Origin: Candidatus Limnocylindria bacterium
GTDB taxonomy: Bacteria > Patescibacteriota > Saccharimonadia > Saccharimonadales > JAGQNK01
Assembly: GCA_035489815.1 (NCBI GenBank)
Contig: DATHJH010000005.1
Span: 20,406 to 84,405 of the forward strand
DNA length: 64,000 nucleotides
Direction of reading: 5' to 3'
Shown here: positions 9,162-34,161 of the stretch, piece by piece
Layout of the letters: each line of letters begins with the position of its first letter
Position numbering within the stretch: position 1 is the stretch's first letter
Notes under the pieces: model-generated
Databases searched by the model: none
The model's input: the letters and a program-made list of their open reading frames with translations, nothing else
What the model was told of the DNA's origin: nothing
Made by a program: the position numbers and the translations under genes

Positions 9162-10445
9162 ATGAAAAATCCCGTCTTTGCCCTGATTGACTGCAATAAC
9201 TTCTTTGTCAGCTGCGAACGTGTTTTTCGCCCCGACCTCGCCACCAAACCAGTTGCCGTACTTTCCAGCAATGACGGCTGCGTCGTGGCCCGGAGTAACG
9301 AAGTCAAGGCGCTTGGCATCCCTATGGCGGCCCCGGCATTCAAGTACCGGGAAATCTTTGACCGCCACGGCATAGTGAAGTTCAGCGCCAACTTTGAACT
9401 CTACGGCAATATGTCGCGGCGCATTACCGAGCTGCTGACCACCATCACCCCGCGCATAGAAGTCTATTCCGTGGATGAATCGTTCCTGGACCTCAGCCAG
9501 CTGGATATCCGGGACCACACAGCGTGGGGGCATAAGGTCCGGGAATCCATCCTCCAGTGGACTGGCCTCCCCGTATCTATAGGGATCGCACCCAGCAAGT
9601 CCCTGGCCAAACTGGCCAGTGACCGCGGCAAGAAAGTACCAGCTCTTGATGGTGTACTAAGTTTGATGGGCAACCCAGAAACAGACTGGCATTTGAGCCA
9701 AGTACCCGTGGGCGACGTCTGGGGCATTGGCTGGCGGCTAGCGCCTAAAATGAGGGCAGAGGGGGCGGGCACGGCCCTGCACCTGGCTCAACTCAGCCCC
9801 CAGCGGGCCCAGCAGCTCATGGGCATCCGCGGCCGGCAGTTGGTGGCGGAACTAAACGGCATCAGTTGCTTTCCGCTAGATCTAGAGCACCAAAAACCCA
9901 AAAGCATCCTACGCAGCCGAACGTTCGGAGAAGACACCTCTCTAGCCAGCGTGATAGAAGCCGCCCTAGCATCGTTTGCTACCACGGCTGCTTTTCGTTT
10001 ACGACGCAGCAGCCAACTGGCCCGCAGGGCAGGAATATTCCTAGATACCAACAAACACAAACCCGGTTTCCGCCGCTGGAGCAGGGAAGTCATCTATCAG
10101 GTACCAACCGCAGACACGGGACAACTCATTAGCGACACCATAAACCTATTCAGCCAAATCTACAGCCCCAGAATGTCCTACCACAGAGCAGGGGTGTGGC
10201 TAGGTGATTTCAGGCCGGCAGACTATCTGCAAACAGACCTGCTGGGCGCCATAGATCCGGCCAAGCATGATCGAGCCCAAGCCCGCATGCAAGCCGTAGA
10301 CGTCCTAAATGAAAGATTCGGAAAACGCACCATCCGCTACGCCACCGAGGACCTTGCCCAAAAATGGCAACCCCGGCACCACACCCGCAGCCCCCGCTAC
10401 ACCACCCGCCCGGACGAACTGCCCACGGCAAAAATAGTGCCATGA
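9162..10445 (+). CDS. umuC: Y-family DNA polymerase, UmuC-like
   Basis: From the internal Met: MKNPVFALIDCNNFFVSCERVFRPDL..PVAVLSSNDGCVVARS..YSVDESFLDL closely parallels the UmuC N-terminus. The upstream part of ORF 9018.. overlaps a repeat and looks non-coding. Confidence 0.85.
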   Translation: MKNPVFALIDCNNFFVSCERVFRPDLATKPVAVLSSNDGCVVARSNEVKALGIPMAAPAFKYREIFDRHGIVKFSANFELYGNMSRRITELLTTITPRIEVYSVDESFLDLSQLDIRDHTAWGHKVRESILQWTGLPVSIGIAPSKSLAKLASDRGKKVPALDGVLSLMGNPETDWHLSQVPVGDVWGIGWRLAPKMRAEGAGTALHLAQLSPQRAQQLMGIRGRQLVAELNGISCFPLDLEHQKPKSILRSRTFGEDTSLASVIEAALASFATTAAFRLRRSSQLARRAGIFLDTNKHKPGFRRWSREVIYQVPTADTGQLISDTINLFSQIYSPRMSYHRAGVWLGDFRPADYLQTDLLGAIDPAKHDRAQARMQAVDVLNERFGKRTIRYATEDLAQKWQPRHHTRSPRYTTRPDELPTAKIVP

Positions 10446-10511
10446 TGCCTGGAGCCTGGACGTTTCCCCTCTGTTATGGTAGTATTTACGGGTCAATTTT
10501 GCTCAAAATTC

Positions 10512-10590
10512 GGCCTCACCGTCTAACGCTTCGGGTAATCATGAGGTACCGGGTAATCTGGTGTCGTGACCGCTGGACAAGGTAGTTACT
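10512..10590 (+). repeat. tRNA-Glu-derived sequence, copy A1 (mini-helix-like)
   Basis: The 30-nt ggcctcaccgtctaacgcttcgggtaatca mimics the tRNA 5' acceptor and D arm. It is followed directly by tgaggtacc, which resembles the 3' acceptor strand. Confidence 0.6.
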
Positions 10591-10609
10591 TAAAAATTCA
10601 AAAACACAT

Positions 10610-10688
10610 GGCCTCACCGTCTAACGCTTCGGGTAATCAATAGACACCAGGAAACCTGGTGGCATAACCGTTAGACAGTGGCTACCCT
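10610..10688 (+). repeat. tRNA-Glu-derived sequence, copy A2 (pseudo-tRNA-like)
   Basis: Identical 30-nt 5' block, then gacaccagg-aaa-cctggtg: the tRNA anticodon stem with a collapsed loop. Then ccgttagac, which pairs with gtctaacg. Confidence 0.6.
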
Positions 10689-10707
10689 TACAATAGAAAC
10701 ATTACGC

Positions 10708-10782
10708 GGCCTCATCGTCTAACGGTTAGGACACCAGGTTCTCATCCTGGCAATCGGGGTTCGATTCCCCGTGAGGTCACCA
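10708..10782 (+). tRNA. tRNA-Glu (anticodon CUC), CCA encoded
   Basis: Hand-folded cloverleaf: acceptor GGCCTCA/TGAGGTC, D arm GTCT-AACGGTTA-GGAC, anticodon arm CCAGG-TTCTCAT-CCTGG, T arm CGGGG-TTCGATT-CCCCG, then ACCA. Confidence 0.85.
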
Positions 10783-10916
10783 TACGGAACAATCAATTTT
10801 CAGAGAAGAAGGAAGTTTCCAGAAATATTCCTTCTTTTCTTCTTATGACCAATGCGCTAACCCCACCTCTGTTAGTCTGAGTTTCGGTTCCTTTAGGGCG
10901 GTAGCTATGCTTTTGT

Positions 10917-10925
10917 TGGTATAAT
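10917..10925 (+). promoter_or_regulatory. extended -10 element TGGTATAAT
   Basis: Ends 8 nt before the ATG at 10934 with no room for an SD, implying a leaderless or near-leaderless mRNA. Confidence 0.45.
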
Positions 10926-10933
10926 GGCTCCTG

Positions 10934-11365
10934 ATGTATATTGCAAATAAAGGTGCCTACCAGAAGCTTGCACATATCCGGTTGGATGAGGCCAAGCTGC
11001 TATTTGCGCAAGGACACTACTGCGGCGCTTTCTACCTTACGGGTTACTCTATTGAATGTGCACTGAAAGCAAAGATTGCAAAAAATTTACGAAAGATTGA
11101 TATCCCCGACCACAAAGTAGTAGAAAAGCACTTCACCCATAATTTACAGGATCTGCTTAGTCAGTCTGAGTTAAATGCAAAGCTTGGTAGGGCCTCCAAG
11201 CGAAACTCTCAACTTAGCGTAAACTGGGATATTATTGCAGGGTTGAATGGGTGGAGTGAAGAAAGTCGCTATAATGAGAGTGTGACAGAAGCAGAAGCCC
11301 AAAAGCTCCTAAATGCTGTTGATGATCCTAAAAATGGAATACTACAATGGATAGAAAAGAACTAA
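10934..11365 (+). CDS. HEPN-domain protein
   Basis: 143 aa. YSIECALKAKIA ... THNLQDLL ... EESRYNE matches the E..LKA / H.L..L / R.Y pattern of classical HEPN domains. Confidence 0.65.
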   Translation: MYIANKGAYQKLAHIRLDEAKLLFAQGHYCGAFYLTGYSIECALKAKIAKNLRKIDIPDHKVVEKHFTHNLQDLLSQSELNAKLGRASKRNSQLSVNWDIIAGLNGWSEESRYNESVTEAEAQKLLNAVDDPKNGILQWIEKN

Positions 11366-11730
11366 GAGAAGATTATATTGAATTGGGCAAAAAAGTCTTA
11401 GAAGGGCTTAATTCTGATTTTGCCGTCACTTCGGCATTTTGGTTCTTACTACCTGATTCTGGCTGGCGTTTTGTAGTTGCAACTCCCGTCTTAGACAGGG
11501 ATGGTCCCGCTAAGGCCTACGAGACGCTTCAAACTAAATTATCCGCAATACTAGGAACAGACAACTCATTCATTAATAATGTGTCGGTTGTTAGCCCAAG
11601 TAATTCTCTAATTAAATTGTTAAAGTCTGCTATAAATACAGGGCCTGATTCTATATCAGGGATTAGATTCACTGGGAACGTTATCAACAGCCAGTATATA
11701 GAGGGTGCCTACATATATCGCATTTCTTAA
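11347..11730 (+). CDS. hypothetical protein, translationally coupled partner of the HEPN gene
   Basis: 127 aa. Overlaps the HEPN gene by 19 nt. No nucleotidyltransferase GS..D.D motif seen. Confidence 0.5.
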   Translation: MDRKELREDYIELGKKVLEGLNSDFAVTSAFWFLLPDSGWRFVVATPVLDRDGPAKAYETLQTKLSAILGTDNSFINNVSVVSPSNSLIKLLKSAINTGPDSISGIRFTGNVINSQYIEGAYIYRIS

Positions 11731-11792
11731 GCTTCGGTTCTAAAGGTCGTCACCCTAAGCGAATTTAAATTCTAGAGACAACTCCGGCAAGG

Positions 11793-12350
11793 CTAACTTT
11801 GCTTGAGGTAGTGATTAAGAATAATAGGGAGCAGCTTCAGGGACAATTCTCTGCTATAACTCAATATCCAAGCCAAAGATTTGCTTATTTTACTCCAATC
11901 GGCGTGTGGCTTTTCAATCTCGGTTTTTATCTCTTTTAGCTTTTCTTTTTCTTCTTTTGTTTGGGCGCTTTCAATGAGATTATCGATCGAAAAGTTAATT
12001 TTAATGTCAATGTTACTGGTATTTTGATTGTTAACGATTATCGCAGCTTGCGATTGCTGTTGGTTTGGGTCAAACTCAAATTCTGCATTAAGCTGATTCA
12101 CAATTCCACTCAGCTTCATCTTGACGAGAGATCCATCGAATCCGTATTCGTTAAATGTATATTCGCTACGCTCAACTTTGAAATGTGAGTAGTCGTTTCT
12201 GGCTACTGTGGATAGCTCGTCGCATATCTTATCCAATCTTTCGGCAATGTGGGTGGGAGCGTTAAAGCCGCTGGGTTCGGGGATAGTGTCGAGATAGCCC
12301 CTTAGCTCAGCGTAGAATCGTTTAACTTTTGCTCTATCTATGTCTGCCAT
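11793..12350 (-). CDS. hypothetical protein (third gene of Shedu-like operon)
   Basis: 185 aa. Its start overlaps the upstream gene's end by 13 nt. Asn/Gln-rich middle and a Lys/Glu-rich helix. Confidence 0.5.
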   Translation of the reverse strand: MADIDRAKVKRFYAELRGYLDTIPEPSGFNAPTHIAERLDKICDELSTVARNDYSHFKVERSEYTFNEYGFDGSLVKMKLSGIVNQLNAEFEFDPNQQQSQAAIIVNNQNTSNIDIKINFSIDNLIESAQTKEEKEKLKEIKTEIEKPHADWSKISKSLAWILSYSRELSLKLLPIILNHYLKQS

Positions 12351-12637
12351 CGCTTCAAAAGCTCCTCTGTGTGTTTAAGTTTTTCAATAAGGCGTTTTCT
12401 TTCAGCTTCAAGGTTGGACCAAAGCTGTTGCTCTGGATGTCTTTGATTCAGCAGATCGTGAAACTCGTTCAAGGCTATGCCAGCCTTAGTCCGCCATTTA
12501 GAGTATTCGAGCAGCTCCTTTTCGGTAGTAATCTTGCCTAGTTTGCCTTGCTCAACCCAATGGGCGAGACTCAATCGGCGAGCTTTTTGCTGAAGTTCTC
12601 GAAATTCTGCCAGCTTCCTTTTAATATCTTCTTCCAT
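12338..12637 (-). CDS. hypothetical helical protein (second gene of Shedu-like operon)
   Basis: 99 aa, charged coiled-coil-like. Starts 4 nt after the upstream stop. Confidence 0.5.
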   Translation of the reverse strand: MEEDIKRKLAEFRELQQKARRLSLAHWVEQGKLGKITTEKELLEYSKWRTKAGIALNEFHDLLNQRHPEQQLWSNLEAERKRLIEKLKHTEELLKRWQT

Positions 12638-12640
12638 CGA

Positions 12641-13909
12641 TCACCCCTTCGCTTTATCGCCCATAATAATTTGGCGAAGTCCTTTCAGCTTGTGCAACAC
12701 CTCGTCGAAGGTAACTATCTCTACGTCCTTGCTGTTACTGCGAAGAAGTTCAAACGACTTGCGCTGTTTGGCGGACATTCCTTTGAGCATCCCAGCTACG
12801 ACGACGCATTTTGGATTGTAGGCTTCAAAGGCCTCCTCAGAGTTGCTACGTAGGTTGTAGAATTCTTTTTGTAGATTATCTCTTTGATCAAGAACCTGGT
12901 TGGTCGCGCCGCTCAACTCTTTATCTGCAGCAAATACATCATTTCCACGATATATTTGTTTTTTGAGCAAGGGAGTTCGATGGGTCTTGATCTCAATGAT
13001 GGCGACATTGTCTGTAAATTTGTTTTTATAGATAAAGTCGGTGACCTTGCCTTTCTTGTTGTCTATGCCCTTACCCCCTACGTAAGCCTTGTCCTGAAAG
13101 AATAAAACTGCAGATGTGAATAGTTGCGAAAAAATCCAGTTATACTTTTTGAAAAACTTTTGCCACTTTTCTTCCAGGCCATCAGTCTCAGTCTTTTGTT
13201 TTAGGAGTTCCTCAAATTCTTCTATAACGGCCTCGATATAAAACTCTTCAATTCTTTCTCGTGTCCTGAGAACAGCGCCCTCGTTATCAAGCAGATTGTC
13301 CTGAGCAGTCTTTTGTGCCAACCCAAGAATCGCATCTACGTCACCCGCTGACAACATTTCTGGTGTGATTTTACTGCGGTGTATATAGGCTCCAAGCCCA
13401 CCACCCACATATTTCACTTTTGGTGGTTTAAAGTCGGCAGGAAAAAGCGATGACAAGGAGACGGCTGCCTGAATATTTAACTCTTTTGAATGTCTGTCAA
13501 AAAGGGCGGATAGCTTCGGAAACTCTTGATCGAGTCTTTTGGCGTTGATGACTATCCTTGTGGGCCCTATGACACTGGGAAGATTCGGACTAATGACTAG
13601 CTCCTCAAGCTGACGGTCCTCAAACAGCACATTAGCCAATCGAGATAGGATTCGAGTGAATCCGTATCCACGACCCGGTGCTGTACTGAAACCCCGTTGA
13701 AGCTCGTCGGGCATATCTTTGAATACGAAACGCTTCACAGGATATTTCGGCTGACCGTCTCTGCGGAAGGGGTAGTGGATTACTTGTTCTCTGGTCTTGA
13801 AGACTTCTCGCGACTTAACTCGGATGTTATTGCGCTCGTCAATATATTCGTAGACCGTTTTCGTCTTCAGGTCTTTAGCGATTGTCTCGTATGGTTTTCT
13901 TGGTTTCAT
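12641..13909 (-). CDS. Shedu-like nuclease (SduA/DUF4263-type C-terminal domain)
   Basis: 422 aa. The C-terminal half carries a PD-(D/E)xK-like core GKVTDFIY...VAIIEIKTHRTPLL, then NQVLDQRDNL and VVVAGM...VEIVTFDEV, as I recall for DUF4263. Confidence 0.6.
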   Translation of the reverse strand: MKPRKPYETIAKDLKTKTVYEYIDERNNIRVKSREVFKTREQVIHYPFRRDGQPKYPVKRFVFKDMPDELQRGFSTAPGRGYGFTRILSRLANVLFEDRQLEELVISPNLPSVIGPTRIVINAKRLDQEFPKLSALFDRHSKELNIQAAVSLSSLFPADFKPPKVKYVGGGLGAYIHRSKITPEMLSAGDVDAILGLAQKTAQDNLLDNEGAVLRTRERIEEFYIEAVIEEFEELLKQKTETDGLEEKWQKFFKKYNWIFSQLFTSAVLFFQDKAYVGGKGIDNKKGKVTDFIYKNKFTDNVAIIEIKTHRTPLLKKQIYRGNDVFAADKELSGATNQVLDQRDNLQKEFYNLRSNSEEAFEAYNPKCVVVAGMLKGMSAKQRKSFELLRSNSKDVEIVTFDEVLHKLKGLRQIIMGDKAKG

Positions 13910-14097
13910 CCTACCTTTATTTTACGCCTACAGAATATGCCTTAGCAACGTTATTGACTCGAAAGCAAAAAGCATAAGCAGTATGACACTCCAAGGGTAG
14001 CGAATCTCTGAGTCGTTTCTCCAGGCTTAGAATGCGAGGACATATGGTATTCCAGTTTTTGGCCCTGTGGGGCACTTTTCTTGGTTATTTCTTGAGC

Positions 14098-14259
14098 ATC
14101 GAACCCCGATTGCCCAATCGGGCGAGAACAGCCGGTGCTGTTCGCAAGGAAGCCTTCCGAGGGCAACTGGTTGCCATACGCGCAAGTTTCGGGCTCGCTG
14201 AAGGTGAGTCGATCCCCCGTGAGGTCACCAGTATTTTTCGACAACTACTTAATCTTGGC
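14098..14259 (+). repeat. structured repeat R1, carrying two tRNA-Glu fragments
   Basis: 14098-14114 is the reverse complement of tRNA ggcaatcggggttcgat (17/17). 14208-14230 matches the tRNA 3' end ttcgattccccgtgaggtcacca at 21/23. The remainder aligns with R2 at 15001. Confidence 0.7.
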
Positions 14260-14293
14260 ATAATTGCCAGGCTCTTGTATATGTAATACACTG

Positions 14294-14302
14294 TGTTACA
14301 AT
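14294..14302 (+). promoter_or_regulatory. extended -10 element TGTTACAAT
   Basis: Ends 6 nt before the brnT ATG, implying a leaderless transcript. Confidence 0.4.
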
Positions 14303-14308
14303 CGACAT

Positions 14309-14590
14309 ATGGTGCAATACGACTGGAACGATGCCAAAAGCCGCCAGCTCAAACAGCGTCATGGCGTTAGCTTTCAGGATATCAAGGCTGCTATAGGCTC
14401 CGGCCACCTACTCGATGACATAGAGCACCACAACCCCCACACCTACCCTCATCAGCGGATTCTAGTTGTCGCCGTCAATAACTATGTATATGTCGTTCCC
14501 TACGTCCGTAACGGCACTATCACATTTCTCAAGACAATTTATCCTAGCCGTAAATTAAACAAAAGGTATCAAAGGAGTAAGTCACCATGA
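14309..14590 (+). CDS. brnT: BrnT-family toxin (DUF497)
   Basis: From the internal Met: MVQYDWNDAKSRQLKQRHGVSFQDIKAA...RILVVAVNNYVYVVPY is typical of BrnT. Overlaps the antitoxin gene by 4 nt. Confidence 0.8.
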   Translation: MVQYDWNDAKSRQLKQRHGVSFQDIKAAIGSGHLLDDIEHHNPHTYPHQRILVVAVNNYVYVVPYVRNGTITFLKTIYPSRKLNKRYQRSKSP

Positions 14591-14856
14591 CCCAAAGCGA
14601 CCTCACTAAAGAAGAGCAAGAAGACCTTCGGGTTATAGAAGATGCTATAGAAAAAGGAGAGTATCGCTCTGTCCTTACACCGGAGCGCCGCCGCGAATTA
14701 GAGCAAGCCGCGAGCAAGCCGCGCGAGCGCAAACAATTGGTGACACTTAGGGTAGCACCGGCCGACCTAGCTAAGCTCAAGCGCAAGGCCGAACATGAAG
14801 GCTTGGCCCCCACTACTTACATGGCCTCAGTGTTGCACAAGACAGCTGTGCAGTAG
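14587..14856 (+). CDS. brnA: BrnA-type antitoxin (RHH/CopG-like C-terminus)
   Basis: 89 aa. VTLRVAPADLAKLKRKAEHEGLAPTTYMASVLHK resembles a ribbon-helix-helix, and the gene is paired with brnT. Confidence 0.75.
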   Translation: MTQSDLTKEEQEDLRVIEDAIEKGEYRSVLTPERRRELEQAASKPRERKQLVTLRVAPADLAKLKRKAEHEGLAPTTYMASVLHKTAVQ

Positions 14857-14956
14857 CGCGTCGTTAATTCTAAGCTCTCCAGCTCCTTCTGCAAAAGATA
14901 TAGACCAGGCAGCAGAGAGTTCCACCTTTTATCCAGGTGGGTCACCAAATCAAGAG

Positions 14957-14979
14957 CCGGTCTGCAAAGACGGGTTTTT
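14957..14979 (+). terminator. rho-independent terminator after brnTA
   Basis: ccggtct-gcaa-agacggg followed by ttttt. Confidence 0.55.
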
Positions 14980-15000
14980 GATTGGTGTTTTCTGGAAATG

Positions 15001-15142
15001 ACCCCGATTGCCCAATCGGGTGAGACATGCCACAGGCATGTCTCAAGGAAACCTTCTGGGGCAAGCTGTGCTTGCCGCCGTGAAGTTTTCGGGCCTGTTG
15101 CATTGTGCCGCTACAATTTTTTACCTACTACTTAGCTCTTGC
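15001..15142 (+). repeat. structured repeat R2
   Basis: Shares accccgattgcccaatcggg.gaga, caagga.ccttc..gggcaa, aagttt(t)cgggc and ctacttaRctcttg blocks with R1. The intervening hairpins differ in sequence but stay perfectly paired. Confidence 0.7.
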
Positions 15143-15292
15143 GAAAGGGGCAAATCCGGATAGTTTTCGACTGGAAGACCCTCGCTTTGCTCGTGCCGAA
15201 AAGTATATGAAATTGTAGACAGAAAGTACTGTATAAAAATATACAGATGTTATTGACTACTGTATAGTTTTAGATGTAGACTATACAGTACT

Positions 15293-16399
15293 ATGGTTGA
15301 TCCAAAAAAACCGTTCAATAACCTTCCTACTCTTCCCCCAAAGAGCTTTCTGTTTGATGACTCGGCCATTCTCAAGGCTTCCATGAGTGCTTCCCAGGCC
15401 ATAGCATCACTAAATGCCACAATTCGGGCGGACGTGAGCAACGTTAATCATAGTCTGAATATGATGTCTCCGCTCTACGTGCCCGAAGCCGTTACAAGTT
15501 CCGGGGTTGAGAATATCATTACGACCAATGAACGAGTATACGAAGCCCGTTTGCTCGACGAAAACGATGTTAAACCCCAAGACAAAGAAGTCATGAGGTA
15601 TGTTGAGGCATTGGCTATGGGTATAGCCGAACTCGACAAGAGAGACTTCCTGGCCACAAACCAGTATATTGCTATTCAAAAAACCCTTGAGCCCTCAAAG
15701 ACAGGAATTCGCAAGATACCAGGAACGCAACTCTCAAATCCTAAAACCGGGCAAATTTACTACACGCCGCCAGATAATGAGCAGGATATTCGACGTTTGC
15801 TCAAAAACTTTGAAGAATATTTTAACGAAGAAGCGCCAAAGCACGAGATCTTTGCACGGGCTGCACTGCTACACTATCAGTTTGAAGCGATTCATCCTTT
15901 TCATGATGGCAATGGGCGTACGGGACGTATGCTTATACCTCTATACCTAACTAAGCAGAATGTCTTAGATGCGCCACTTTTATTTGTAAGTAAATTTATT
16001 CTTGAAAACAGAGACAACTACTACAAACTACTTCGAAATGTAACGTTTAAGGAAGACTGGAAGAGTTGGGTGCTCTATATGCTCGAAGCTTTTGAGCGGC
16101 AGGCCGAATACACGCTGGCCGTTCTCGGCAAGATAGATTTCTTCAAGAAGAAGCTTGAGAAAAAGCTCAATGAGGTAATGGGGCATGCTTACGCTCATGA
16201 TATTACCCAATTCCTCTATAAGCATCCTTTCTTTACTCAGGCAGAGTTCGAGGGTGCTGTAGATGTGTCGTACGTAACCGCGAGAAAATACCTCAAGCTG
16301 CTTGAAACCGAAAGGATAGTAGCTAAAAAGAGACAGGCTAAGCGTAATCGTTACATCTACACTTGCCCCGAATATATTGTGCTTTTGAAAAAGTCATAA
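15293..16399 (+). CDS. Fic-family protein with C-terminal winged-helix-like region
   Basis: 368 aa with the canonical Fic motif HPFHDGNGRTGR. Confidence 0.9.
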   Translation: MVDPKKPFNNLPTLPPKSFLFDDSAILKASMSASQAIASLNATIRADVSNVNHSLNMMSPLYVPEAVTSSGVENIITTNERVYEARLLDENDVKPQDKEVMRYVEALAMGIAELDKRDFLATNQYIAIQKTLEPSKTGIRKIPGTQLSNPKTGQIYYTPPDNEQDIRRLLKNFEEYFNEEAPKHEIFARAALLHYQFEAIHPFHDGNGRTGRMLIPLYLTKQNVLDAPLLFVSKFILENRDNYYKLLRNVTFKEDWKSWVLYMLEAFERQAEYTLAVLGKIDFFKKKLEKKLNEVMGHAYAHDITQFLYKHPFFTQAEFEGAVDVSYVTARKYLKLLETERIVAKKRQAKRNRYIYTCPEYIVLLKKS

Positions 16400-16554
16400 C
16401 CCCAGTTCTTTAAGTCGTTCACTCACCCGTATCAGGCCAGACCATAAAGTGTTCCAGTTTTGGGTCAGATGGTTCACCATAGTATGAGCATAGTAAAGTA
16501 CACGGTATATCTGTGTACTTTTATTTTTGAAGCGAAAGTGGGTTAATTAAACTC

Positions 16555-17211
16555 ATGGGAGAACGAGCGGTTTTAATTGCCGGCCCAGGCCAGCACTTTG
16601 CATATGAACTAGCGAGTGAGTTTGCGTATCATGGATATGACGTAGCTTTAGCTGGTCGAAATACTGACCAGCTAGATGCTCTCGCCTCCAGGCTTAGCGA
16701 GGATGGCGTTCCTTCGTTTTTGGTTAAAGCAGATTTCAGTGACTTGGCATCAGTCGAGGTAGCTCTTGAGAGGTGTTCCCAAGAACTGCCGCCTTGGAGT
16801 TCTCTTATTTACAACGTCAAGCATAGCCCAACGGGAGACGCCCTTACGACGGAGCTTCATGAACTTGAACATAGTTTGGGATCGAACGTTTTAGGCGCTT
16901 TGTATCTTTCGCGTATAGCGCTCCAGGCATGGGAGCGGGACAAAGAAGCCAGTATTTTGCTGTCTGGCGGCGGGTATAAAGATGCCCCGGATCCAAACAA
17001 GCTGGGACTCTCTGTCTCCAAAGGCGCCCTGCATTCTATGGCCCTCGCCATGGAGCCAGTATTCCGCGATCAGGGAGTTGCGGTAAAAGAAGTAGTGATC
17101 GATGGAGTCGTACGTCCCGAAGGCCCAATTTATCCCGAAGAACTAGCGAAACTCTACTGGTATGCTCATAGTAATAACTCGTCCGAAACCGTATTTACGA
17201 TCTCTGCCTGA
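16555..17211 (+). CDS. atypical short-chain dehydrogenase/reductase-like protein
   Basis: 218 aa. Rossmann-like N-terminus VLIAGPGQHFAYELA and an SVSKGALHSM segment in place of YxxxK. The motifs are degenerate. Confidence 0.5.
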   Translation: MGERAVLIAGPGQHFAYELASEFAYHGYDVALAGRNTDQLDALASRLSEDGVPSFLVKADFSDLASVEVALERCSQELPPWSSLIYNVKHSPTGDALTTELHELEHSLGSNVLGALYLSRIALQAWERDKEASILLSGGGYKDAPDPNKLGLSVSKGALHSMALAMEPVFRDQGVAVKEVVIDGVVRPEGPIYPEELAKLYWYAHSNNSSETVFTISA

Positions 17212-17406
17212 ATTTCAAGCTTCTGGTCCAGAAGGTACACGCTAGAAGTAAACTATAGCACTAAGGAGGGCGGGTAATTTCTCCTCTGCGAAAACACTTG
17301 CTCCTCAAGAATGCTGATCAGTTCAAAAGGTGTTGGACAATCTAAACTGCTCAAGCCCTGAACCGGATCTGATCGTTCGCCCGCCGGGCAAGTACGGCCT
17401 TTACGA

Positions 17407-18789
17407 TTACGCCTGAGTTGGCCCCGAGGTTACAGGGAGCGAGATAGTAAAGGTGGTTTGTCGACCGAAACTTGTTGCCTCGATCCGGCCACCAAAATTA
17501 CCCTCTATAAACCGGCGGGTCAGGTAGAGGCCCATGCCCATCCCGCCCTGTTTGGTGGTATAAAACGGCTCAAAGACCCGATCCAGGGCGACCGGTTCTA
17601 TGCCTTTGCCCCAGTCGGTAACCGTAAGCAGCGGGGACTTACCCTTGGTTCGCAGGATTATTTGTACCCGCCGTTTTTCACTGTCCTGACCGATGAGTGG
17701 TCCGTAACTTTCTATAGCGTTGTTGATAATATTTGTCAGGACCTGTTGGAACAAAACCTTTTCTCCTAGGCAACTAAGCTCGCCAGGGGACGAAGACTCC
17801 GGCTTTATCCACTCCAGTGTTACGCGGGCCTTTTTAGCAGCAGTCTCCATAAGCCCGACAACATGGGTTATCTCTTTGGTCAGGTCAAAGACTTTTGGGT
17901 CATACTGGCCCTTCAGCTGCTGGCGGGTGCGGCCCAGGACGTCATTTATCTGTTTAAGCTGCTTTTTCGCCCGGCGGACAGAGGGACTGCTTTCTTTGGT
18001 CTCAATACCATCAATCTCCAGCGCCAGCGATGTTAAATTATTGGCCAGGTCATGCATAAGGGCCGTACTGACTTCGCCCACCTCCGCCAGCCGATAAAGC
18101 TGCTGCATCTTTTCCGATTCTGCCGATCGCAGCTTTTGACTTTGACGCTTCAGTTTGTTGGTCAGAATACCTTTTTGGCGGGCAAAGGCGGCCTCGACCT
18201 CGCGCAACTGACGCCGCGTTTCTTCAAGCCGGTACAAAGAGCCGCTGATGGCGGCCAGAACATGGAAGAGCAGCGCAAAAAGAAGGGCAGTACTAAAGTC
18301 GGAGGGTTTTTGGCTCATGACATAGACAGGATGAACCAGCTCCTGCAACTCCGCCGCCCGGAACGCCAGCAGAAAGACCGTACTAATGCTGGCCGCAAGC
18401 AGGGAACATTTATAGCCGCAAAGGCTTCCCGCCAGAATAATTACGATGCAGCAAAGCACCATGGATCCAACACCAATACCGACGCTCCAAATAATCCCGA
18501 ATGACAAAAACAGGTAAAGACACATACTGTACAGACACGTAGACCCCACCACGCCTTTGGCGGCAAGCACTAACAGGATTACGGCCATGAGGCTGGCAAT
18601 CACAAAGTATGGCAGCGTCCGTATAGCGTAGGGACTATCCGCCACCAATCGGGCAACAAATAAAGCCAACGTAATAAGTGACAGACCAAGCGCTGTGACA
18701 AGCATATAGGTTCGAGCCAATCTTCGTTGCCAGGGATGCTGATGATGGTTGTTCATAAAACAGAGAACTTTATGGATAGATTGAAACAT
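17407..18789 (-). CDS. membrane sensor histidine kinase
   Basis: 460 aa. About 6 TM helices, H-box ALMHDLANNL, HATPase boxes NNAIES, DWGKGI and GGMGMGLYLTRRFI. Confidence 0.85.
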   Translation of the reverse strand: MFQSIHKVLCFMNNHHQHPWQRRLARTYMLVTALGLSLITLALFVARLVADSPYAIRTLPYFVIASLMAVILLVLAAKGVVGSTCLYSMCLYLFLSFGIIWSVGIGVGSMVLCCIVIILAGSLCGYKCSLLAASISTVFLLAFRAAELQELVHPVYVMSQKPSDFSTALLFALLFHVLAAISGSLYRLEETRRQLREVEAAFARQKGILTNKLKRQSQKLRSAESEKMQQLYRLAEVGEVSTALMHDLANNLTSLALEIDGIETKESSPSVRRAKKQLKQINDVLGRTRQQLKGQYDPKVFDLTKEITHVVGLMETAAKKARVTLEWIKPESSSPGELSCLGEKVLFQQVLTNIINNAIESYGPLIGQDSEKRRVQIILRTKGKSPLLTVTDWGKGIEPVALDRVFEPFYTTKQGGMGMGLYLTRRFIEGNFGGRIEATSFGRQTTFTISLPVTSGPTQA

Positions 18790-18798
18790 GTGATCTCT

Positions 18799-19767
18799 TT
18801 AGGGTTGCAAGCTGCTGTTTATGAGTTCGTGCTCTTTACCCATTCTTTCGGTGATATCCTGCGTGGTGCCAAATAACCGCATCGGCTTCCCGGCCGTATC
18901 CAGCATGACCTCGCCCAGGCTATGCACCCACACCAAAGAACCATCAGGCCGTTCCAGGCGATGAATGAGCGAGTATGGCTGATGATCGCTCAGTGCGTCC
19001 TGGACGGTTTCCTCGGTGAGCTGGCGGTCATCGGAGTACACACGCTGGAGGTAAGATTCATAGGTAACTTTTTTATGGGGATCCATACCAAAGGTGCGAT
19101 AGAGCTGGTCTGACCATTCCACGATGTCAGACCTGACATCCCAGGTCCAACTGCCAACGCCAGCCAGTTCCTCGGCCCTTTTCAATGACCTGATCTGTAG
19201 TTTCTGAACATCAAAAATGATCCGCTGGGCCTGTAAAAACAGGAGGCTCAGGGCAAAGGTAATGCCTCCCACAAAGTAAAAGTGCAGCATGACGTCCTCC
19301 GGGTAAGGCAGCGGCACGACTCCTTGTAGTTGCAGCAGCAGCAGGAAAAACGAGACAGCATAGGTGCATATCACCCAAAAACTACCGCCTCTGCCCGGAA
19401 CAAAAAACATCGCAAAGACCACATACGCCGGGAACCACATGAGGCCGGTATTCGCCAGTCCGCCGCTGACCTGCCATGGCAGCAGCACTACCGGGCCAAG
19501 TGCGGCAAAGACATTGGCGGCTATCACCAGCCTGTTATGAAACCGGATCGCCCACCAATTGGCGGCGATAATGCCCGCTGTACCAGCATACAAAGCAGCA
19601 AGTCCCAAAACGCCAGCCCTGGCTTGCAATACCGCATAAACCAGCAAAAAAGTCAGCGCCACCGGTGTAAAGGCCTGAAAAAGATATCTTTGCAGTTCCT
19701 CGTTCTGAGACAGCAGCCCAATAAGCTCCCGGTCCCCGGACTGACTCTGTAGTTTCTGTGCAGCCAT
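18799..19767 (-). CDS. polytopic membrane protein with C-terminal PAS domain (no kinase core)
   Basis: 322 aa. Multiple TM helices, then GVGSWTWDVRSDIVEWSDQLYRTFGMDP...RLERPDGSLVWVHSLGE, typical of PAS. Ends 9 nt before the kinase gene. Confidence 0.75.
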   Translation of the reverse strand: MAAQKLQSQSGDRELIGLLSQNEELQRYLFQAFTPVALTFLLVYAVLQARAGVLGLAALYAGTAGIIAANWWAIRFHNRLVIAANVFAALGPVVLLPWQVSGGLANTGLMWFPAYVVFAMFFVPGRGGSFWVICTYAVSFFLLLLQLQGVVPLPYPEDVMLHFYFVGGITFALSLLFLQAQRIIFDVQKLQIRSLKRAEELAGVGSWTWDVRSDIVEWSDQLYRTFGMDPHKKVTYESYLQRVYSDDRQLTEETVQDALSDHQPYSLIHRLERPDGSLVWVHSLGEVMLDTAGKPMRLFGTTQDITERMGKEHELINSSLQP

Positions 19768-19912: not shown

Positions 19913-21751
19913 ATGAAACATGTACCCTTGTCCTGGCTCCGTCGTTTTCAGTTTGCACTGCTCGCTCTTGATGCAGTTGTGCTGGGGTTTTACCTGTACG
20001 GCGTTTTGGCCGGCGACCCAGCGTCGCAGCATGCCGTCGAAGGCTTGCATAGCCACAACCAGGCAGGCACAACTGCTCCGCTCTTTGGTGTTTCTGTACT
20101 GATAGCAAGCCTGGCCGGTTTTCATGCGCTCTACACGTTAGGAATTACCTGGTGGCTTGACAAGCGCCGTACCTGGTTAGTGCATGCCGTCGGCGTACTG
20201 ACGTCAGGCAGTATATTAGTCCTGCTCGCCAACAGTGATAGCCCCATCCACCTTGTCCATCATGTGATGCTGATGTGTTTTGTGTTCCTGGCAACCATGG
20301 CCGGTACCCTGGTGGCGGGAGTAACTGTGGCACTGGCTTTTATATTTCTGATTATTACTTCAGTCGGGGCAAGCCACCTGACAGCCGACCCGGCCGGACA
20401 CATCGTAGAAATGATCCTCGTCAACCTTTCTGCCATTAGCGCCGTAGGCGGCTGGTTTATTTTTAATAAATACTACGTCCAGAAGACCGATCCAAAGGTA
20501 GTAGAATCTTTAACCAGACTTGTAGACAGAGAGCGCACTACGGTGAGTCTTATCCTGGAGTCTATCACCGACGGGGTCATGATCATCGACACGGACGGCA
20601 TAGTACGCATACTCAACGCCAGTTCCGCGAAGATGCTTGGATGGACCAAGGAAGAAGCCCGAAACCTTCAATACACCTCACTGCTCTTAGCTGCCGGTGC
20701 ACCTGGTAAGTCCCCGATGCCTGCAACGCAACCATCCGAAAGTCTGGCCATTGCCAAAACATTTGAAAGCAGTAAACCCGAACAGCAGGTCAGCCTGTTC
20801 AAAACGCGTGATGGCCGGCAGATTTACCTGGATATAACCGCTTCTCCACTTATACAAGGCGGGGAGGCGGCTGATGCAGGGCAAAAAGTTGTGGGCGTCA
20901 TAGCCGTGCTCCGTGACGTGGACAAACAAAAGCGCGAGGAAGAGCAGCGCAGTGAGTTTATCTCAACTGCCAGCCACGAAATGCGCACGCCGGTAGCAGC
21001 CATTGAAGGCTATCTGGCTCTGGCACTCAACAACAAAGTCAGTACCATAGACGCAAAGGCCCGGTCATACATAGAAAAAGCCCATTCCAGCACCCAGCAT
21101 CTCGGCAAACTGTTTCAGGACCTGCTGACCAGTGCCAGGGCAGAGGACGGCCGGCTCGTCAGCCATCCGCAGGTTATAGAGATGGGCCACTATTTAGAAC
21201 AGCTGGTCGAGACCCTGCGCTTTAGCGCAGAGAAAAAGGGCTTGTTGATGGACTTCACCGTGGGCGCCAGTACAACAGAGCAAAACACGGCCGTAACCGG
21301 CAAAATCATTAAGCCCCTCTACTATACCCATGCCGATCCGGACCGCATGCGCGAGGTCATCACGAACCTGTTTGACAACGCCGTCAAGTACACAGAGACA
21401 GGCAAAATATCCCTGGGGCTCACCGGCAATACAGAAATCGTACAGATGTTTGTTAAAGACACAGGCCCCGGTATCCCTGCAGCCGACATTAGCCACCTCT
21501 TCCAAAAGTTTTACCGGGTAGACAATTCCGCTACCCGCACTATTGGGGGGACTGGCCTTGGGCTATTCATTTCGCGCAAGATCGTAGAACTATATAAGGG
21601 CCGTGTATGGGTAGAAAGCGAGTTCGGTAAAGGCAGCACATTTTACATAAACCTGCCCCGGCTCGCCAACCAGAAAGCCGACGAATTACTCAGGTCCGAA
21701 CAAGCCACCGCCCAAAGCGCAAGCCCGCTTGACAGGCCCGCCGCTTCATAA
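19913..21751 (+). CDS. membrane PAS sensor histidine kinase
   Basis: 612 aa. TM region, PAS (ESITDGVMIIDTDG), H-box ASHEMRTPVAAIEGY, and HATPase boxes (DTGPGIP, GGTGLGLFISRKIV). Confidence 0.9.
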   Translation: MKHVPLSWLRRFQFALLALDAVVLGFYLYGVLAGDPASQHAVEGLHSHNQAGTTAPLFGVSVLIASLAGFHALYTLGITWWLDKRRTWLVHAVGVLTSGSILVLLANSDSPIHLVHHVMLMCFVFLATMAGTLVAGVTVALAFIFLIITSVGASHLTADPAGHIVEMILVNLSAISAVGGWFIFNKYYVQKTDPKVVESLTRLVDRERTTVSLILESITDGVMIIDTDGIVRILNASSAKMLGWTKEEARNLQYTSLLLAAGAPGKSPMPATQPSESLAIAKTFESSKPEQQVSLFKTRDGRQIYLDITASPLIQGGEAADAGQKVVGVIAVLRDVDKQKREEEQRSEFISTASHEMRTPVAAIEGYLALALNNKVSTIDAKARSYIEKAHSSTQHLGKLFQDLLTSARAEDGRLVSHPQVIEMGHYLEQLVETLRFSAEKKGLLMDFTVGASTTEQNTAVTGKIIKPLYYTHADPDRMREVITNLFDNAVKYTETGKISLGLTGNTEIVQMFVKDTGPGIPAADISHLFQKFYRVDNSATRTIGGTGLGLFISRKIVELYKGRVWVESEFGKGSTFYINLPRLANQKADELLRSEQATAQSASPLDRPAAS

Positions 21752-26310: not shown

Positions 26311-26829
26311 ATGCAAGGGGCTTCATCCGATGATAAATCTTTTTTTACACTGAAAGCTGAGCGTACCCACCTGCCTGGTGTACCTGGCGTAGATACCAGC
26401 AACCCCCCTTATGATTGCCTTGTGTACCTTGATATTTACGGAGGTCAATTACAAGCTATACCCGGCGAAGACGAAACAGCCACCCTTGAATACGATGGGC
26501 CTTTACATCGTGTTCTAGCCACCCTTGTCTTAGCCGACGAAACAAATCCAAAAACTCTCCAAATATTCGATCGCATAGAAAGAGAGAAGCCCGGGACACA
26601 AGCGAGGGTACACCTTAAGGCTGATCATGCGTACGACTCGCTGGTGAGCGCCCTCTATAATACTCATCCTAATAATCCCAGAATGGTCGATGTGGCAGGC
26701 TTGGCGGTAGCCGAAACGCTTGATACATTACGGACCTTCACTTTCGAACACTACGAGAACACAGTCGCGACTCTCATCGATCGGGCACTCACTCCTCTTA
26801 CAGAAAGAGCGGAACCTTTGAACCCCTGA
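26311..26829 (+). CDS. hypothetical protein
   Basis: 172-aa ORF. No motif recognised. Confidence 0.45.
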   Translation: MQGASSDDKSFFTLKAERTHLPGVPGVDTSNPPYDCLVYLDIYGGQLQAIPGEDETATLEYDGPLHRVLATLVLADETNPKTLQIFDRIEREKPGTQARVHLKADHAYDSLVSALYNTHPNNPRMVDVAGLAVAETLDTLRTFTFEHYENTVATLIDRALTPLTERAEPLNP

Positions 26830-27213
26830 AGTCGAGGCTAGCAGGTGATTGGGCACAGATATGAAAACAGGCCTCCGAGAGGGTGAGAACAGCCTGTGGC
26901 CGTTCGCAAGGCCGGAAGCCCGGATGGCAAAGCCACCGAGCTGAGGTGGGGCCGACCGCATTTTCAAAGAAAATGACGGGTGGCTGGGCACGCACACTAA
27001 AAAGAGCCTGTAGAGGGGGTGGGCACCGCTACAGGCTCATTTCAGGAGTCAACCCTAAAGTTGACTCCATACCCTTCAACCCACCCCGGTGTAAGCGTCG
27101 ATGTCCAAAACTCTATAAAGACTCGCGCCGTTCCGACAGACGGAACGTACTTGCATACTCACCTTGAATGGGGACCAACTCAGCCAAAGCTAAGAAGGGC
27201 TAGTTAAAGGGAA
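26830..27213 (+). other. densely structured non-coding segment (candidate ncRNA, identity unresolved)
   Basis: No credible ORF. Perfect hairpins at 26933-26949, 26959-26975, 27004-27038, 27045-27068 and 27129-27147. Segment 26885-26911 matches repeat R1 (14124-14149) at 23 of 27 positions. Confidence 0.4.
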
Positions 27214-27374
27214 TAGACTTCTCCCCGGATAAATCTTGGAGTCAAATACGATGATTGCTGATGCAGTGACCGGACTGGCGAGTAATGCGTAACCATAGTT
27301 ACTCAGCATGAGTCAGGGCGGTCAGTGCGCAGCAAGGGCGTATTTGAACCAGGACTTATCTGGGGAGGAGTCTA
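27214..27374 (+). ncRNA. 161-nt long imperfect hairpin (candidate sRNA, or a MITE-like palindrome)
   Basis: The outer 26-nt arms pair with 22 Watson-Crick, 3 G-U (valid on the + strand only) and 1 mismatch. Apex hairpin gtaac-cata-gttac at about 27295. Confidence 0.35.
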
Positions 27375-27668
27375 CTAGTTTGTTTTAGAACGCCGTCTCC
27401 TTCCTTTGCAGGTGAGACAACGCTAAAAATAAGTGGAGGGTAACAACTCATAGTCAGCACGTTCTAAAACAATCTAACAAAATTAAGATGACTATAAGTC
27501 ATCTCTGTTAGAATAGGGGGTATAAGGTGCGTAAACCCCTTATGTGGGATTCACAGTTTGCTATTCTAGCAGAATTATATTCTTTGTCAACACCTTTTTG
27601 TGTTAAGTTCAAATAAATTTACTTGTAAACATAAGCTTTACCCCTTATAGATCCTTTTTTGACGTCGT

Positions 27669-32966: not shown

Positions 32967-33383
32967 ATGACAGAATCAAATGAACCGGAAAGCTACCTCA
33001 GACCAGTCGACTCTCCTCTCTACGTGGAACATGGGAGCGGAAGGCGTGGCATACGAGCCCTGAGGCAAGAAGATATGTTAGCGGCCATAGCCTTATCTAG
33101 CGAACCCCCCAGCATAACCAGGCTCGAAGAGCTAACAGGGTTTTCGAATCCTACCGTTATTTCTGTGGTTCAAGCGCTAAGGGAGAGCTCACTTATCGAG
33201 AGTACCGACATAGCAGTTTACCGAGGGTACCGTTCGGGAGAGGGCAGAGTACCTCATGTCGGCTATGTGCTTACAGAACCAACCACAGAAGCGTTCCCAG
33301 CACACCTGGAAATAAGAATTCCGCTGCTTTATAAAGCCTACAAGACATTACATCAAAATAAACAAAACCCGAACAACACCTAA
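32967..33383 (+). CDS. hypothetical protein with wHTH-like segment
   Basis: 138 aa. ITRLEELTGFSNPTVISVVQALRESSLIE resembles a MarR/ROK-type HTH. Confidence 0.45.
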   Translation: MTESNEPESYLRPVDSPLYVEHGSGRRGIRALRQEDMLAAIALSSEPPSITRLEELTGFSNPTVISVVQALRESSLIESTDIAVYRGYRSGEGRVPHVGYVLTEPTTEAFPAHLEIRIPLLYKAYKTLHQNKQNPNNT

Positions 33384-34161
33384 TCAACTACATAAGCCTA
33401 TGCAAACATGCGGTTTGAGCCGGAAAATTCGGACGGACGGAAAGCCCAAAGAACCGATCTCAAACTACTGGAAGAGTACGAAGACTAAACAAAATACGAA
33501 CACGATTATTTTTGAGTATCCATCATACGGATACGACAAAAAGCGAACAGAGCTACTTTTATAGCTAAGATCAAAAAAAGCAAGAAACTGGAAAGAACCG
33601 GCAAATTTCGAAGGCCGCAAAGTAGGGAGCATAGAAAAGTCTAACAACAAAATAAAATGGGGGGTCGAAAGCCGGGCGGGGACAGCCACACGAAATGTAA
33701 GTTAAGTCATAGACACATGACGTCGTACAATGTATATTTTGCGACTCTAATATGAGGCTGTGGGACGAACTGATACACCTTCCGTAGGGGAAGTTGGACG
33801 AACCTTTTAACTATGAAGCCCTGTACCGCAGCTAACTAGTACCGATCAAATGCACTATGCCCAGGTGTTATAGTGTCTGCTGGCTGACCCTCCAGCTTCA
33901 CTGGCTTGTCGCATGTAGCGGCGCAATTTGACTTTTCCACAGAATCCTCATGTGCCTTGTGAAAATTTGCTTTTTCACGATTTAATTAGTTTTATATATT
34001 TATTCCCTGCTTCACCTTCTTTATGAATTTTTGACTTTTGCCCTACTTTATATATTTGTATATATTTTGCCCTGGGCGGCCATGATTCGTTTACTGAACG
34101 TTTTACGAACACCCGGGGCAGAGCGGAATAGGGACCCTTTCCTTGAGCTGCCTGGCGTAAC

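Follow-up and report, generated by a model that had tools for sequence, protein, structure and literature searches.

We describe a 5.7-kb island of low G+C content (GC) that lies directly behind the 3′ end of a tRNA-Glu(CTC) gene in a Saccharibacteria (TM7) genome, together with its relation to a family of large serine recombinases (LSRs) encoded at the same site in related genomes. The window, i.e. the whole stretch of DNA analysed, was 64,000 nt long, and all coordinates are window positions. Its sole tRNA gene was the tRNA-Glu gene. The island (10783-16480) was composed of three cassettes, E1 to E3, and two structured modules (Table 1), in the order tRNA, E1 with its end arm, module 1 with the direct repeat DR1, E2 with its arm, terminator, module 2 with a decayed repeat, E3 with its arm, and a final terminator.

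Table 1. Features of the tRNA-Glu island and its surroundings (ORF, open reading frame).
Feature	Position	Strand	Details
Two tandem 98-nt units upstream of the tRNA	10491-10686	+	direct and inverted repeat search, alignment
tRNA-Glu(CTC)	10708-10782	+	ARAGORN; Rfam tRNA 60.9 bits, full length
Cassette E1	about 10783-14078		GC 0.429; hairpin after tRNA (~10803-10843), HEPN, 127-aa partner, minus-strand SduA operon
HEPN	10934-11365	+	Pfam E = 1e-6; phrog_5737 E = 1e-32
127-aa HEPN partner	11347-11730	+	
185-aa ORF downstream of SduA	11793-12350	-	same minus-strand operon
99-aa ORF downstream of SduA	12338-12637	-	same minus-strand operon
SduA (Shedu)	12641-13909	-	Pfam SduA_C E = 1.9e-25; PADLOC SduA E = 3.7e-77
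E1 right-end arm	14047-14078		LSR attP arm, degenerate
Module 1	14082-14230	+	GC 0.57; covariance model R1 123 bits; 74% identical to L003 module
Cassette E2	about 14231-14947	+	GC 0.486; BrnT-like toxin and 89-aa partner
BrnT-like toxin	14264 or 14309 to 14590	+	
89-aa partner of BrnT-like toxin	14587-14856	+	weak NikA-like (ribbon-helix-helix) match, E = 7e-4
E2 right-end arm	14920-14947		TTCCACCTTTTATCCAGGTGGGTCACCA; strict motif match
Terminator hairpin before module 2	14948-14986	+	region 14948-15120 GC 0.53
Module 2	14983-15120	+	core 64% identical to module 1; R1 90.9 bits
Cassette E3	about 15121-16479	+	GC 0.432; SoFic; left boundary approximate
SoFic-type Fic protein	15293-16399	+	PADLOC SoFic E = 1.4e-91; NCBIfam E = 1e-82
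E3 right-end arm	16452-16479		TTCCAGTTTTGGGTCAGATGGTTCACCA; strict motif match
Terminator hairpin at far end of array	16495-16521	+	terminator scan: 11-bp stem and T-run; GC back to host level
PAS/HisKA kinase of conserved frame	19913-21751		

Composition, cargo and genomic setting

The GC was 0.53-0.59 before the tRNA, 0.38-0.48 across 10750-16750 and above 0.50 afterwards. For the whole island it was 0.444, against 0.516 ± 0.0096 in 470 non-overlapping 5.7-kb windows (z = -7.5), which bears out the A+T-rich shift directly after the tRNA noted in a preliminary description of this DNA. The tetranucleotide distance of the island was 0.0245, the maximum elsewhere being 0.0137. By sub-region, the cassettes had a GC of 0.43-0.49 and the modules a host-like 0.53-0.57. 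With its start at 10783 on the 3′ side of a tRNA gene that is left intact, and with its deviant composition, the island shows features of a tRNA-anchored genomic island.

The cargo proteins were compared with four libraries (Pfam, PADLOC, PHROGs and NCBIfam). Of the HEPN pair proposed in the preliminary description, the HEPN domain was recovered, but the 127-aa partner had no nucleotidyltransferase or other domain match in these libraries. The SduA operon was encoded on the minus strand, opposite to the rest of the listed cargo. SduA possessed the DUF4263/SduA C-terminal nuclease domain by which Shedu is recognised; the suggested Shedu-like three-gene operon stands as regards SduA, and the two small downstream ORFs, which overlap each other, matched no known family in the four libraries. 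The BrnT-like protein scored 26.2 bits in Pfam, below the cut-off of 34.5, and had a weak PHROG match to "ribonuclease toxin" (E = 2e-3). The toxin gene came first and overlapped that of its partner by 4 nt, an order that fits BrnTA, and with a sub-threshold toxin and a weak ribbon-helix-helix partner the earlier BrnTA assignment is best worded as BrnTA-like. The Fic protein was of the SoFic type, with Fic (E = 1.4e-19) and Fic_N (E = 1.6e-11) domains and an intact HPFHDGNGR motif (HPFHDGNGRTGR) in the translation. As noted before, no recombinase was encoded: every ORF of at least 89 aa in 10783-16480 was accounted for, and tblastn with three related LSRs gave no match anywhere in the window.

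For comparison, 80 loci were fetched with the UmuC-like gene that lies upstream of the tRNA in the window (56-76% identity; almost all labelled as Saccharibacteria metagenome-assembled genomes). Loci are numbered L and LSR-family proteins P. A tRNA-Glu was detectable in 47 relatives; in these, the frame umuD-umuC ... tRNA-Glu ... PAS/HisKA kinase was conserved, and the 3′ side of the tRNA was hypervariable, with ~0.02-9 kb of unrelated DNA. Near-empty sites were present in L022, L024, L025 and L061. In L003, the closest relative with data, the 3′ part of the tRNA was identical to that of the window, and the tRNA was followed by a module with no cargo between them; in the window, 3.3 kb of cargo separates the tRNA from the orthologous module body. 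When 123 island ORFs of 25 relatives were run against Pfam, the cargo proved to be mixed (methyltransferases, NUDIX, Fic, Mrr and OLD among others), with Resolvase and Recombinase domains in two ORFs. L017 carried, at 12632-13635 (minus strand), a ~0.9-kb cassette between two near-identical modules that encodes a protein with a type-IV-pilin-like N-terminus (MKANQKGFSVVEILIVV...), so that the cargo at this hot spot extends beyond defence genes. Exact-protein matches for SDR and SduA came from the same genome only, hence no comparison could be drawn from them.

The comparison of related genomes that the preliminary description had recommended thus returned near-empty sites, a cargo-free site and alternative cargo, i.e. 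a presence/absence polymorphism at tRNA-Glu, and the PADLOC and composition checks it had listed gave the SduA and SoFic matches and a deviation from the flanks. Its proposal that the locus grew by accretion of cassettes agrees with the three low-GC cassettes, each with an end arm of its own. Horizontal acquisition of the island and its build-up by cassette accretion are supported.

We must also note that the orientation of tRNA-Glu relative to umuC varied among genomes, being minus in most and plus in the window and about a dozen others. Despite this, the variable DNA always lay on the 3′ side of the tRNA (related loci L003-L082). Apparently, the segment holding tRNA-Glu has been inverted repeatedly among the relatives.

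Cassette ends and serine recombinases in related genomes

In L005, L036 and L051, an LSR of 511-536 aa adjoined the 3′ end of the tRNA and was convergent with it. These enzymes had Resolvase and Recombinase domains, the catalytic motif RVSTxEQ and a zinc-ribbon pattern of conserved Cys/His residues, were only about 30% identical to one another, and matched the catalytic domains of PDB entries 3guv, 3bvp (TP901-1) and 2mhc (TnpX). All three ORFs crossed the terminator and the antisense strand of the tRNA, ending in ...GIEPxLPG and a stop. The cargo that goes with them was of the defence type: L005 encodes an OLD-family nuclease and L051 a D12 methylase. The preliminary description had left the enzyme class open between tyrosine and serine recombinases; the large serine recombinases are the relevant class.

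A database search returned 149 relatives of these LSRs at E ≤ 1e-30. Among 115 full-length members, 96 ended in tRNA-antisense-type peptides, including non-Glu types such as ...GLEPATSWL; the enzymes thus form a broad LSR family whose genes run into tRNA genes. On viral contigs, LSRs were only 24-26% identical, and no close un-integrated copy was present. One of the viral LSRs (L109:6001-7597; 26% identical to the family) adjoined the 3′ end of a convergent tRNA-Val gene, which is the gene-tRNA arrangement of the tRNA-Glu LSRs at a different tRNA.

At the end opposite to the LSR, the L005 and L051 elements closed with the sequence TTCCA-N17-TCACCA, followed by a terminator. The same 28-nt motif closed cassettes E2 and E3 and, in degenerate form, E1. 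The strict pattern TTCCA-N16/17-TCACCA had 14 matches in 1.47 Mb, with 1.4 expected. All 12 matches in loci with a detectable tRNA-Glu were located downstream of the tRNA and in the same orientation, two of them in the island of the window.

The motif is linked to the recombinases by their C-termini. At least five members of the LSR family carry an alternative tail encoded by attP. These non-tRNA tails (MVTLLGENWNTFWQELERF... in P0001 and P0051, MVTHVDITWNSFLPYL... in P0009, and similar) are the antisense translation of the cassette-end motif, W-N being the reverse complement of GTTCCA. P0001, which is 94% identical to the L051 LSR, is encoded on contig L113, where GTTCCAGTTTTCCCCGAGTAGGGTCACCA is joined directly to TATAGGAATCAAGAGACTCTTCGG, that is, the P arm is fused to the P′ sequence that adjoins the tRNA in L051. 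By its sequence, the L113 junction is an intact attP. Since the ORF runs across the attachment site, the C-terminus of the LSR differs between the integrated and the excised state.

Relics of such tails were present at all three cassette ends of the window. The antisense strand at attR2 (E2 end) reads VTHLDKRWNSLLPGLYLLQKELESLEL, identical to the P0009 tail at 14 of 27 positions, the highest score of any 27-aa window across the six frames of the 64 kb. At attR3 (E3 end), VNHLTQNWNTLWSGLIRVSERLKELGL, followed by a stop, matched P0001 at 12 of 27 positions, and at attR1 (E1 end), VPHRAKNWNTICPRILSLEKRLRDSLP (also given as KVPHRAKNWNTICPRILSLEKRLRDSLP) matched attP-form LSR tails at 9 of 27. Among 127,834 six-frame windows of 27 aa, only the attR2 and attR3 relics reached at least 10 identities, and none of 5000 shuffles attained any of the three observed values. 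Each of the cassettes therefore ends in an arm derived from an LSR attP.

L051 and L076 had 146 nt in common at their right ends only, identical through ACCA and divergent directly after it, which puts the junction at the CCA end or right beside it; the crossover presumably occurred in or next to CCA. The right end of E3 was likewise homologous to the right end of the Fic cassette of L046. Measured from the junction, the GTTC sub-motif was ~5 nt more distant in the P arm than in the tRNA arm, a shift that fits the zinc-ribbon offset between attP and attB reportedly described by Rutherford et al. in 2013.

Structured modules and other tRNA-related sequences

Both tRNA fragments named in the preliminary description were found where it had placed them. 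The direct fragment (14209-14230, DR1) matched the tRNA 3′ end at 21 of 22 positions, or 21 of 23 when 14208 is included, and the inverted fragment (14098-14114) was 17/17 complementary to tRNA 10749-10765. The exact 10-mer GAGGTCACCA occurred at two sites only in the 64 kb, in the tRNA and at 14221. Allowing up to two mismatches, it gave 63 matches against 49 expected; these weak extra copies of the tRNA 3′ core were uninformative and were dropped.

The two fragments proved to be the opposite ends of one module. In module 1, the tRNA 3′ third was present as an inverted copy in decayed form, which includes the 17/17 fragment, and tRNA positions 44-51 as a direct copy; the module further contained a ~95-nt three-helix core in the place of the T-loop and, finally, DR1, a direct copy of tRNA positions 54-75. 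In module 2, the repeat around the inverted fragment was found a second time (15001-15025 and beyond), and the tRNA-end repeat was degenerate. This second copy, the three recombinase-type cassette ends and the two tandem units upstream of the tRNA go beyond the preliminary description.

A module of ~150 nt directly followed the tRNA and its terminator, with no cargo between, in L003, L016, L040, L084, L085, L104 and others, and the unit also directly followed the tRNA in four metagenome contigs; units were sometimes in tandem. The order within the unit was ACCA, a terminator in which CCA pairs with TGG, a body of ~130 nt, a 16-22-nt copy of the 3′ end of its own tRNA, and a terminator. The 3′ repeat tracked the tRNA of its host, with 22 of 22 matches to its own tRNA and at most 20 where the 3′ end of another host differs. 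The inverted part tracked the host tRNA only loosely, so the idea that this fragment strictly follows each host's tRNA was dropped. It was, however, a conserved part of the module in nine aligned genomes.

These observations bear on the account given in the preliminary description, which took the direct repeat for the attR scar of a 3.4-kb element and the inverted fragment for evidence of inversion. Spelled out as a model, a single element (10783-14230) would have been inserted by a tyrosine or serine integrase with a crossover in the T-loop, the 22-nt repeat being its attR, and an inversion would have followed; BrnTA and Fic would be similar elements. The repeat is indeed near-perfect (21/22) and starts in the T-loop at tRNA position 54, the classic position of identity blocks, where the Dehalococcoides ssrA islands also insert with 20-bp repeats (PMC3146451), and on the far side of the L051 island there is a 22-nt repeat without mismatches. 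Nevertheless, many relatives have the repeat, the ~130-nt body upstream of it and the inverted fragment right behind the tRNA terminator, with no cargo; the inverted fragment belongs to the module in the nine aligned genomes, and the GC of the module is host-like, unlike that of the cargo. The direct repeat is thus not simply the attR scar of a 3.4-kb element, nor does the inverted fragment testify to an inversion at this site. Moreover, in L051 a complete attP arm and a terminator lie between cargo and module, and a homologous relic is present in the window at 14047-14078. We therefore consider the single-element account unlikely, and a tyrosine-integrase crossover in the T-loop was not adopted as the main mechanism, as it lacks the required genes and features.

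The folding of the module was evaluated in ten aligned sequences. Of 39 predicted pairs, 18 were kept through changes on both sides, compared with 10.3 ± 1.7 compensatory pairs in shuffles (0/500). Paired cells amounted to 96.1%, against 82.0 ± 1.2% in shuffles (0/500), and register-shifted controls were 31-50% paired. The alignment contained 34 G.U and 3 A.C cells, which indicates that the tRNA-sense strand is the folded one. In Rfam 15, tRNA was the only family at the gathering threshold, and nothing credible was found at E ≤ 10 over 13900-15300, 10440-10940 and 26500-27500. A pattern scan of metagenomes gave 26 matches, of which five loci (four distinct modules) were real and the remainder were discarded as chance matches in GC-rich coding DNA; a viral scan for the module gave no match. 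With covariation support and no database match, the module is a candidate for a new family of RNA or single-stranded DNA (ssDNA).

Could the module steer insertion? An integron-like, CRISPR-associated-transposon-like or RNA-guided system, with the module serving as guide RNA, bridge RNA or attC-like site to direct insertion beside the matched tRNA, would make sense of a module with one segment identical and one complementary to the tRNA gene, of the identical segment tracking its own tRNA, of the strand-specific, covariation-supported fold, and of cassettes that adjoin modules. We regard it as very improbable, since no IntI, IS110, TnpB, Cas12k or Tns genes were present in the window or among the families listed for related islands, no Rfam family matched, modules occur in many genomes without any cassette, and an ordinary protein-recognised attP/attB pair explains the junctions. 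The guide segments of known bridge RNAs are also shorter than the matching segments of the module (17-22 nt).

A more general proposal is that the modules are a new functional class of structured elements, whose scaffold was copied from the 3′ third of the host tRNA-Glu with the three-helix core replacing the T-loop, and which, by tandem amplification and re-creation of the CCA/terminator junction, provide an integron-like LSR platform in bacteria of the candidate phyla radiation (CPR), the folded strand (RNA or ssDNA) possibly being active. This is conceivable, though we hold it with considerable doubt. If true, the folded strand might aid recombinase recruitment or directionality, or the read-through expression and processing of cassettes. 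An origin of the core from IS200/IS605 elements of the PATE (palindrome-associated transposable element) type was not adopted; helices H2 and H4 share CTGCC-NNN-GGNAG by eye only. A split or permuted tRNA, a gene resembling transfer-messenger RNA (tmRNA), a self-cleaving ribozyme and the remnant of a convergent tRNA pair were set aside as well, the required genes or features being missing.

Covariance model R1 also detected the core at the D-loop position of tRNA 5′-fragment copies upstream of the tRNA (L017, L071) and at a conserved non-tRNA intergenic locus (L063; more weakly at ~26.86 kb of the window). In the window, this locus is an 840-nt non-coding region (26830-27668). At least 15 relatives have it in synteny and partly conserved, with homologues of the same genes on either side, and the extra core copy of L063 lies in the same intergenic locus. 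Rfam gave no match for the region. It includes GGGTGAGAACAGCC...CGCAAGG, which is the H2 motif of the tRNA-linked module (R1, E = 0.004), and may be an undescribed Saccharibacteria non-coding RNA.

In each of the two 98-nt units upstream of the tRNA, an AT-rich spacer that includes a -10-like box was followed by a copy of tRNA positions 1-17 and then by divergent sequence. Unit 2 closed with the tRNA 5′ half in inverted form and folded as a long hairpin (z = -2.4). The units were not found in the 80 relatives, and Rfam at gathering and permissive thresholds gave no family for them (10440-10940). L018, L017 and L071 have other copies of tRNA 5′ fragments upstream of their tRNAs.

Beyond the island, the genes SDR, HK460 and PAS322 (16555-19767; host-like GC of 0.513) separate it from the conserved kinase. 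They were not found at this locus in any of the 80 relatives, and no att-like arm was found in 16555-19767; the segment may have been inserted earlier and ameliorated since, or it may stem from a rearrangement specific to the lineage. Two more low-GC patches occur in the window, at ~33000-34500 and ~41250-42750 (GC 0.43-0.46 in 1-kb windows). An independent assembly of the same genome (L001/L002, Logan contig SRR7026477_46759) has a break within the tRNA-Glu gene, which fits repeats or strain heterogeneity at the junction.

Proposed assembly of the array and relation to known systems

Taken together, we consider it likely that in Saccharibacteria an LSR family uses the meeting point of the tRNA-Glu 3′ CCA end and the tRNA terminator as its attachment site, that the island arose from three LSR-type insertions which now lack a recombinase, and that the modules serve as extra landing sites. 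In this model, the tRNA-Glu 3′ end and the sequence following it would be the primary attachment site (attB, now attL). An LSR element would integrate with its recombinase gene beside the tRNA, antisense into it, and its other end would bear the attP arm TTCCA-N17-TCACCA, which in the circular form encodes the alternative C-terminal tail. L051 has this layout, with tRNA, LSR ... cargo ... P arm, and then terminator, module body and repeat. The window would hold three such insertions (HEPN and Shedu; BrnTA-like; SoFic) that kept the arm and lost or never had the recombinase gene, as deletion derivatives or as cassettes mobilisable in cis or in trans. We infer that LSRs catalysed these particular insertions.

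The two resident modules of ~150 nt separate the cassettes, and their tRNA 3′ copy and terminator would re-create the attachment junction, so that a single tRNA target became a multi-site array. One cassette follows the tRNA, one the repeat of module 1 and one the decayed repeat of module 2, and the module repeats would act as secondary attB sites. In the ancestral state, the tRNA and two modules would have offered three CCA/terminator junctions, each later filled by one LSR-type cassette; this order of events is our reconstruction. The terminator at 16495-16521 would then have belonged originally to the tRNA or a module and been pushed to the far end of the array. L017 has a cassette placed exactly between the repeat of one module and the terminator of the next, near-identical module, as E2 does. 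Modules may multiply by unequal exchange between the 22-nt repeats, which would keep the repeats identical to the tRNA; the near-identical tandem modules of L017 suggest such an exchange.

Several observations weigh against this model. Only three of the 80 related loci carry an LSR at the tRNA-Glu site, most cassettes are without a recombinase, and the 64-kb window contains no LSR. The arm of E1 reads GCACTT instead of TCACCA, and the adjoining terminator is partly missing. The left boundary of E3 depends on a heavily decayed repeat, and the left ends of E2 and E3 had only an 8-mer in common (E = 0.06), which we did not use as evidence. The position of the crossover is drawn from junction comparisons alone, and no clear dyad symmetry was seen by eye around either candidate crossover.

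Homologous exchange of cassettes between the conserved flanks could also yield the same polymorphism without recent recombinase activity. Taken further, the hot spot would be maintained by natural transformation and homologous recombination through the tRNA, the modules, umuC and the kinase flank, and the arms would be old, unrelated relics. Saccharibacteria are naturally competent, the flanks are conserved around highly variable content, the window has no recombinase, and repeats and modules offer homology. However, all three low-GC cassettes have an attP-derived arm as their precise end, cassettes of different genomes have only the arms and not the flanks in common, and the boundaries coincide with CCA/terminator junctions, which makes this explanation quite improbable in our view.

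The closest documented system to the proposed LSR array appears to be that of the ssrA-specific genomic islands of Dehalococcoides. There, a serine recombinase of ~540 aa (DsiB) is encoded on the reverse strand beside attL at the 3′ end of a small-RNA gene, tandem low-GC islands are bounded by 20-bp repeats of the RNA-gene 3′ end with a conserved motif upstream of the repeats, and 15 islands without an integration module were read as cis-mobilisable elements joined by accretion (PMC3146451). The LSRs of our relatives, beside the 3′ end of a structured RNA, the tandem low-GC islands, the boundary repeats of ~20 nt, the conserved motif upstream of each repeat and the many recombinase-less members are similar. 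By contrast, the target is tRNA-Glu and not tmRNA, the host is a CPR bacterium, and the junction comparisons put the crossover at the CCA end and not halfway along the T-loop. The LSR ORF is completed by the tRNA antisense strand when integrated and by the attP arm when excised, and the tRNA-end repeats belong to resident structured modules instead of being plain scars. The cargo consists of anti-phage and toxin genes in place of dehalogenases, and no second small recombinase (DsiA/CcrA-like) was seen at our locus, unlike in Dehalococcoides.

With att-like ends and no integrase, the cassettes resemble cis-mobilisable elements (CIMEs) and other cases of accretion at tRNA sites (PMC5704250), in which att-bounded tandem segments accumulate at a hot spot and mobility presumably comes from a neighbouring or incoming recombinase. 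They differ from classical CIMEs, which have tyrosine integrases and plain att repeats, in LSR-type arms that contain a coding relic of the recombinase tail, and their mobility is putative. The enzymes of the relatives share their domain architecture, and short, non-identical attP and attB sites, with SCCmec/CcrAB and the phage LSRs (phiC31, Bxb1, TP901-1, LI), from which the tRNA 3′-end target, the recombinase ORF across the attachment site and the arrays of recombinase-less cassettes set them apart. As in integron arrays, small recombinase-less cassettes, often with toxin-antitoxin or defence genes, are stacked site-specifically in a promoter-proximal position; unlike in integrons, there is no IntI, attI or attC hairpin, the arms are of the LSR type and the orientation of the cassettes is mixed. 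In the island itself, no tyrosine recombinase was found, and the repeats are tRNA-derived modules and LSR arms rather than attC.

Literature searches gave no description of this arrangement in Saccharibacteria. What sets it apart from the Dehalococcoides islands is the tRNA target, the CCA junction, the two-state LSR tails and the resident modules that copy the site, and the module is the part that could prove new. Little has been charted of the mobile elements and defence islands in Saccharibacteria and other CPR bacteria, and in such tiny genomes each acquisition site counts. The locus offers a concrete, testable route by which these bacteria may gain defence genes, through CCA-targeting LSRs, arm-only cassettes and repeats that multiply the landing sites. 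If active, LSRs of the P0001, P0009 and L051 types, together with the 3′ end and terminator of tRNA-Glu, might also be put to use as tools for integration in Saccharibacteria, a group that is hard to engineer.

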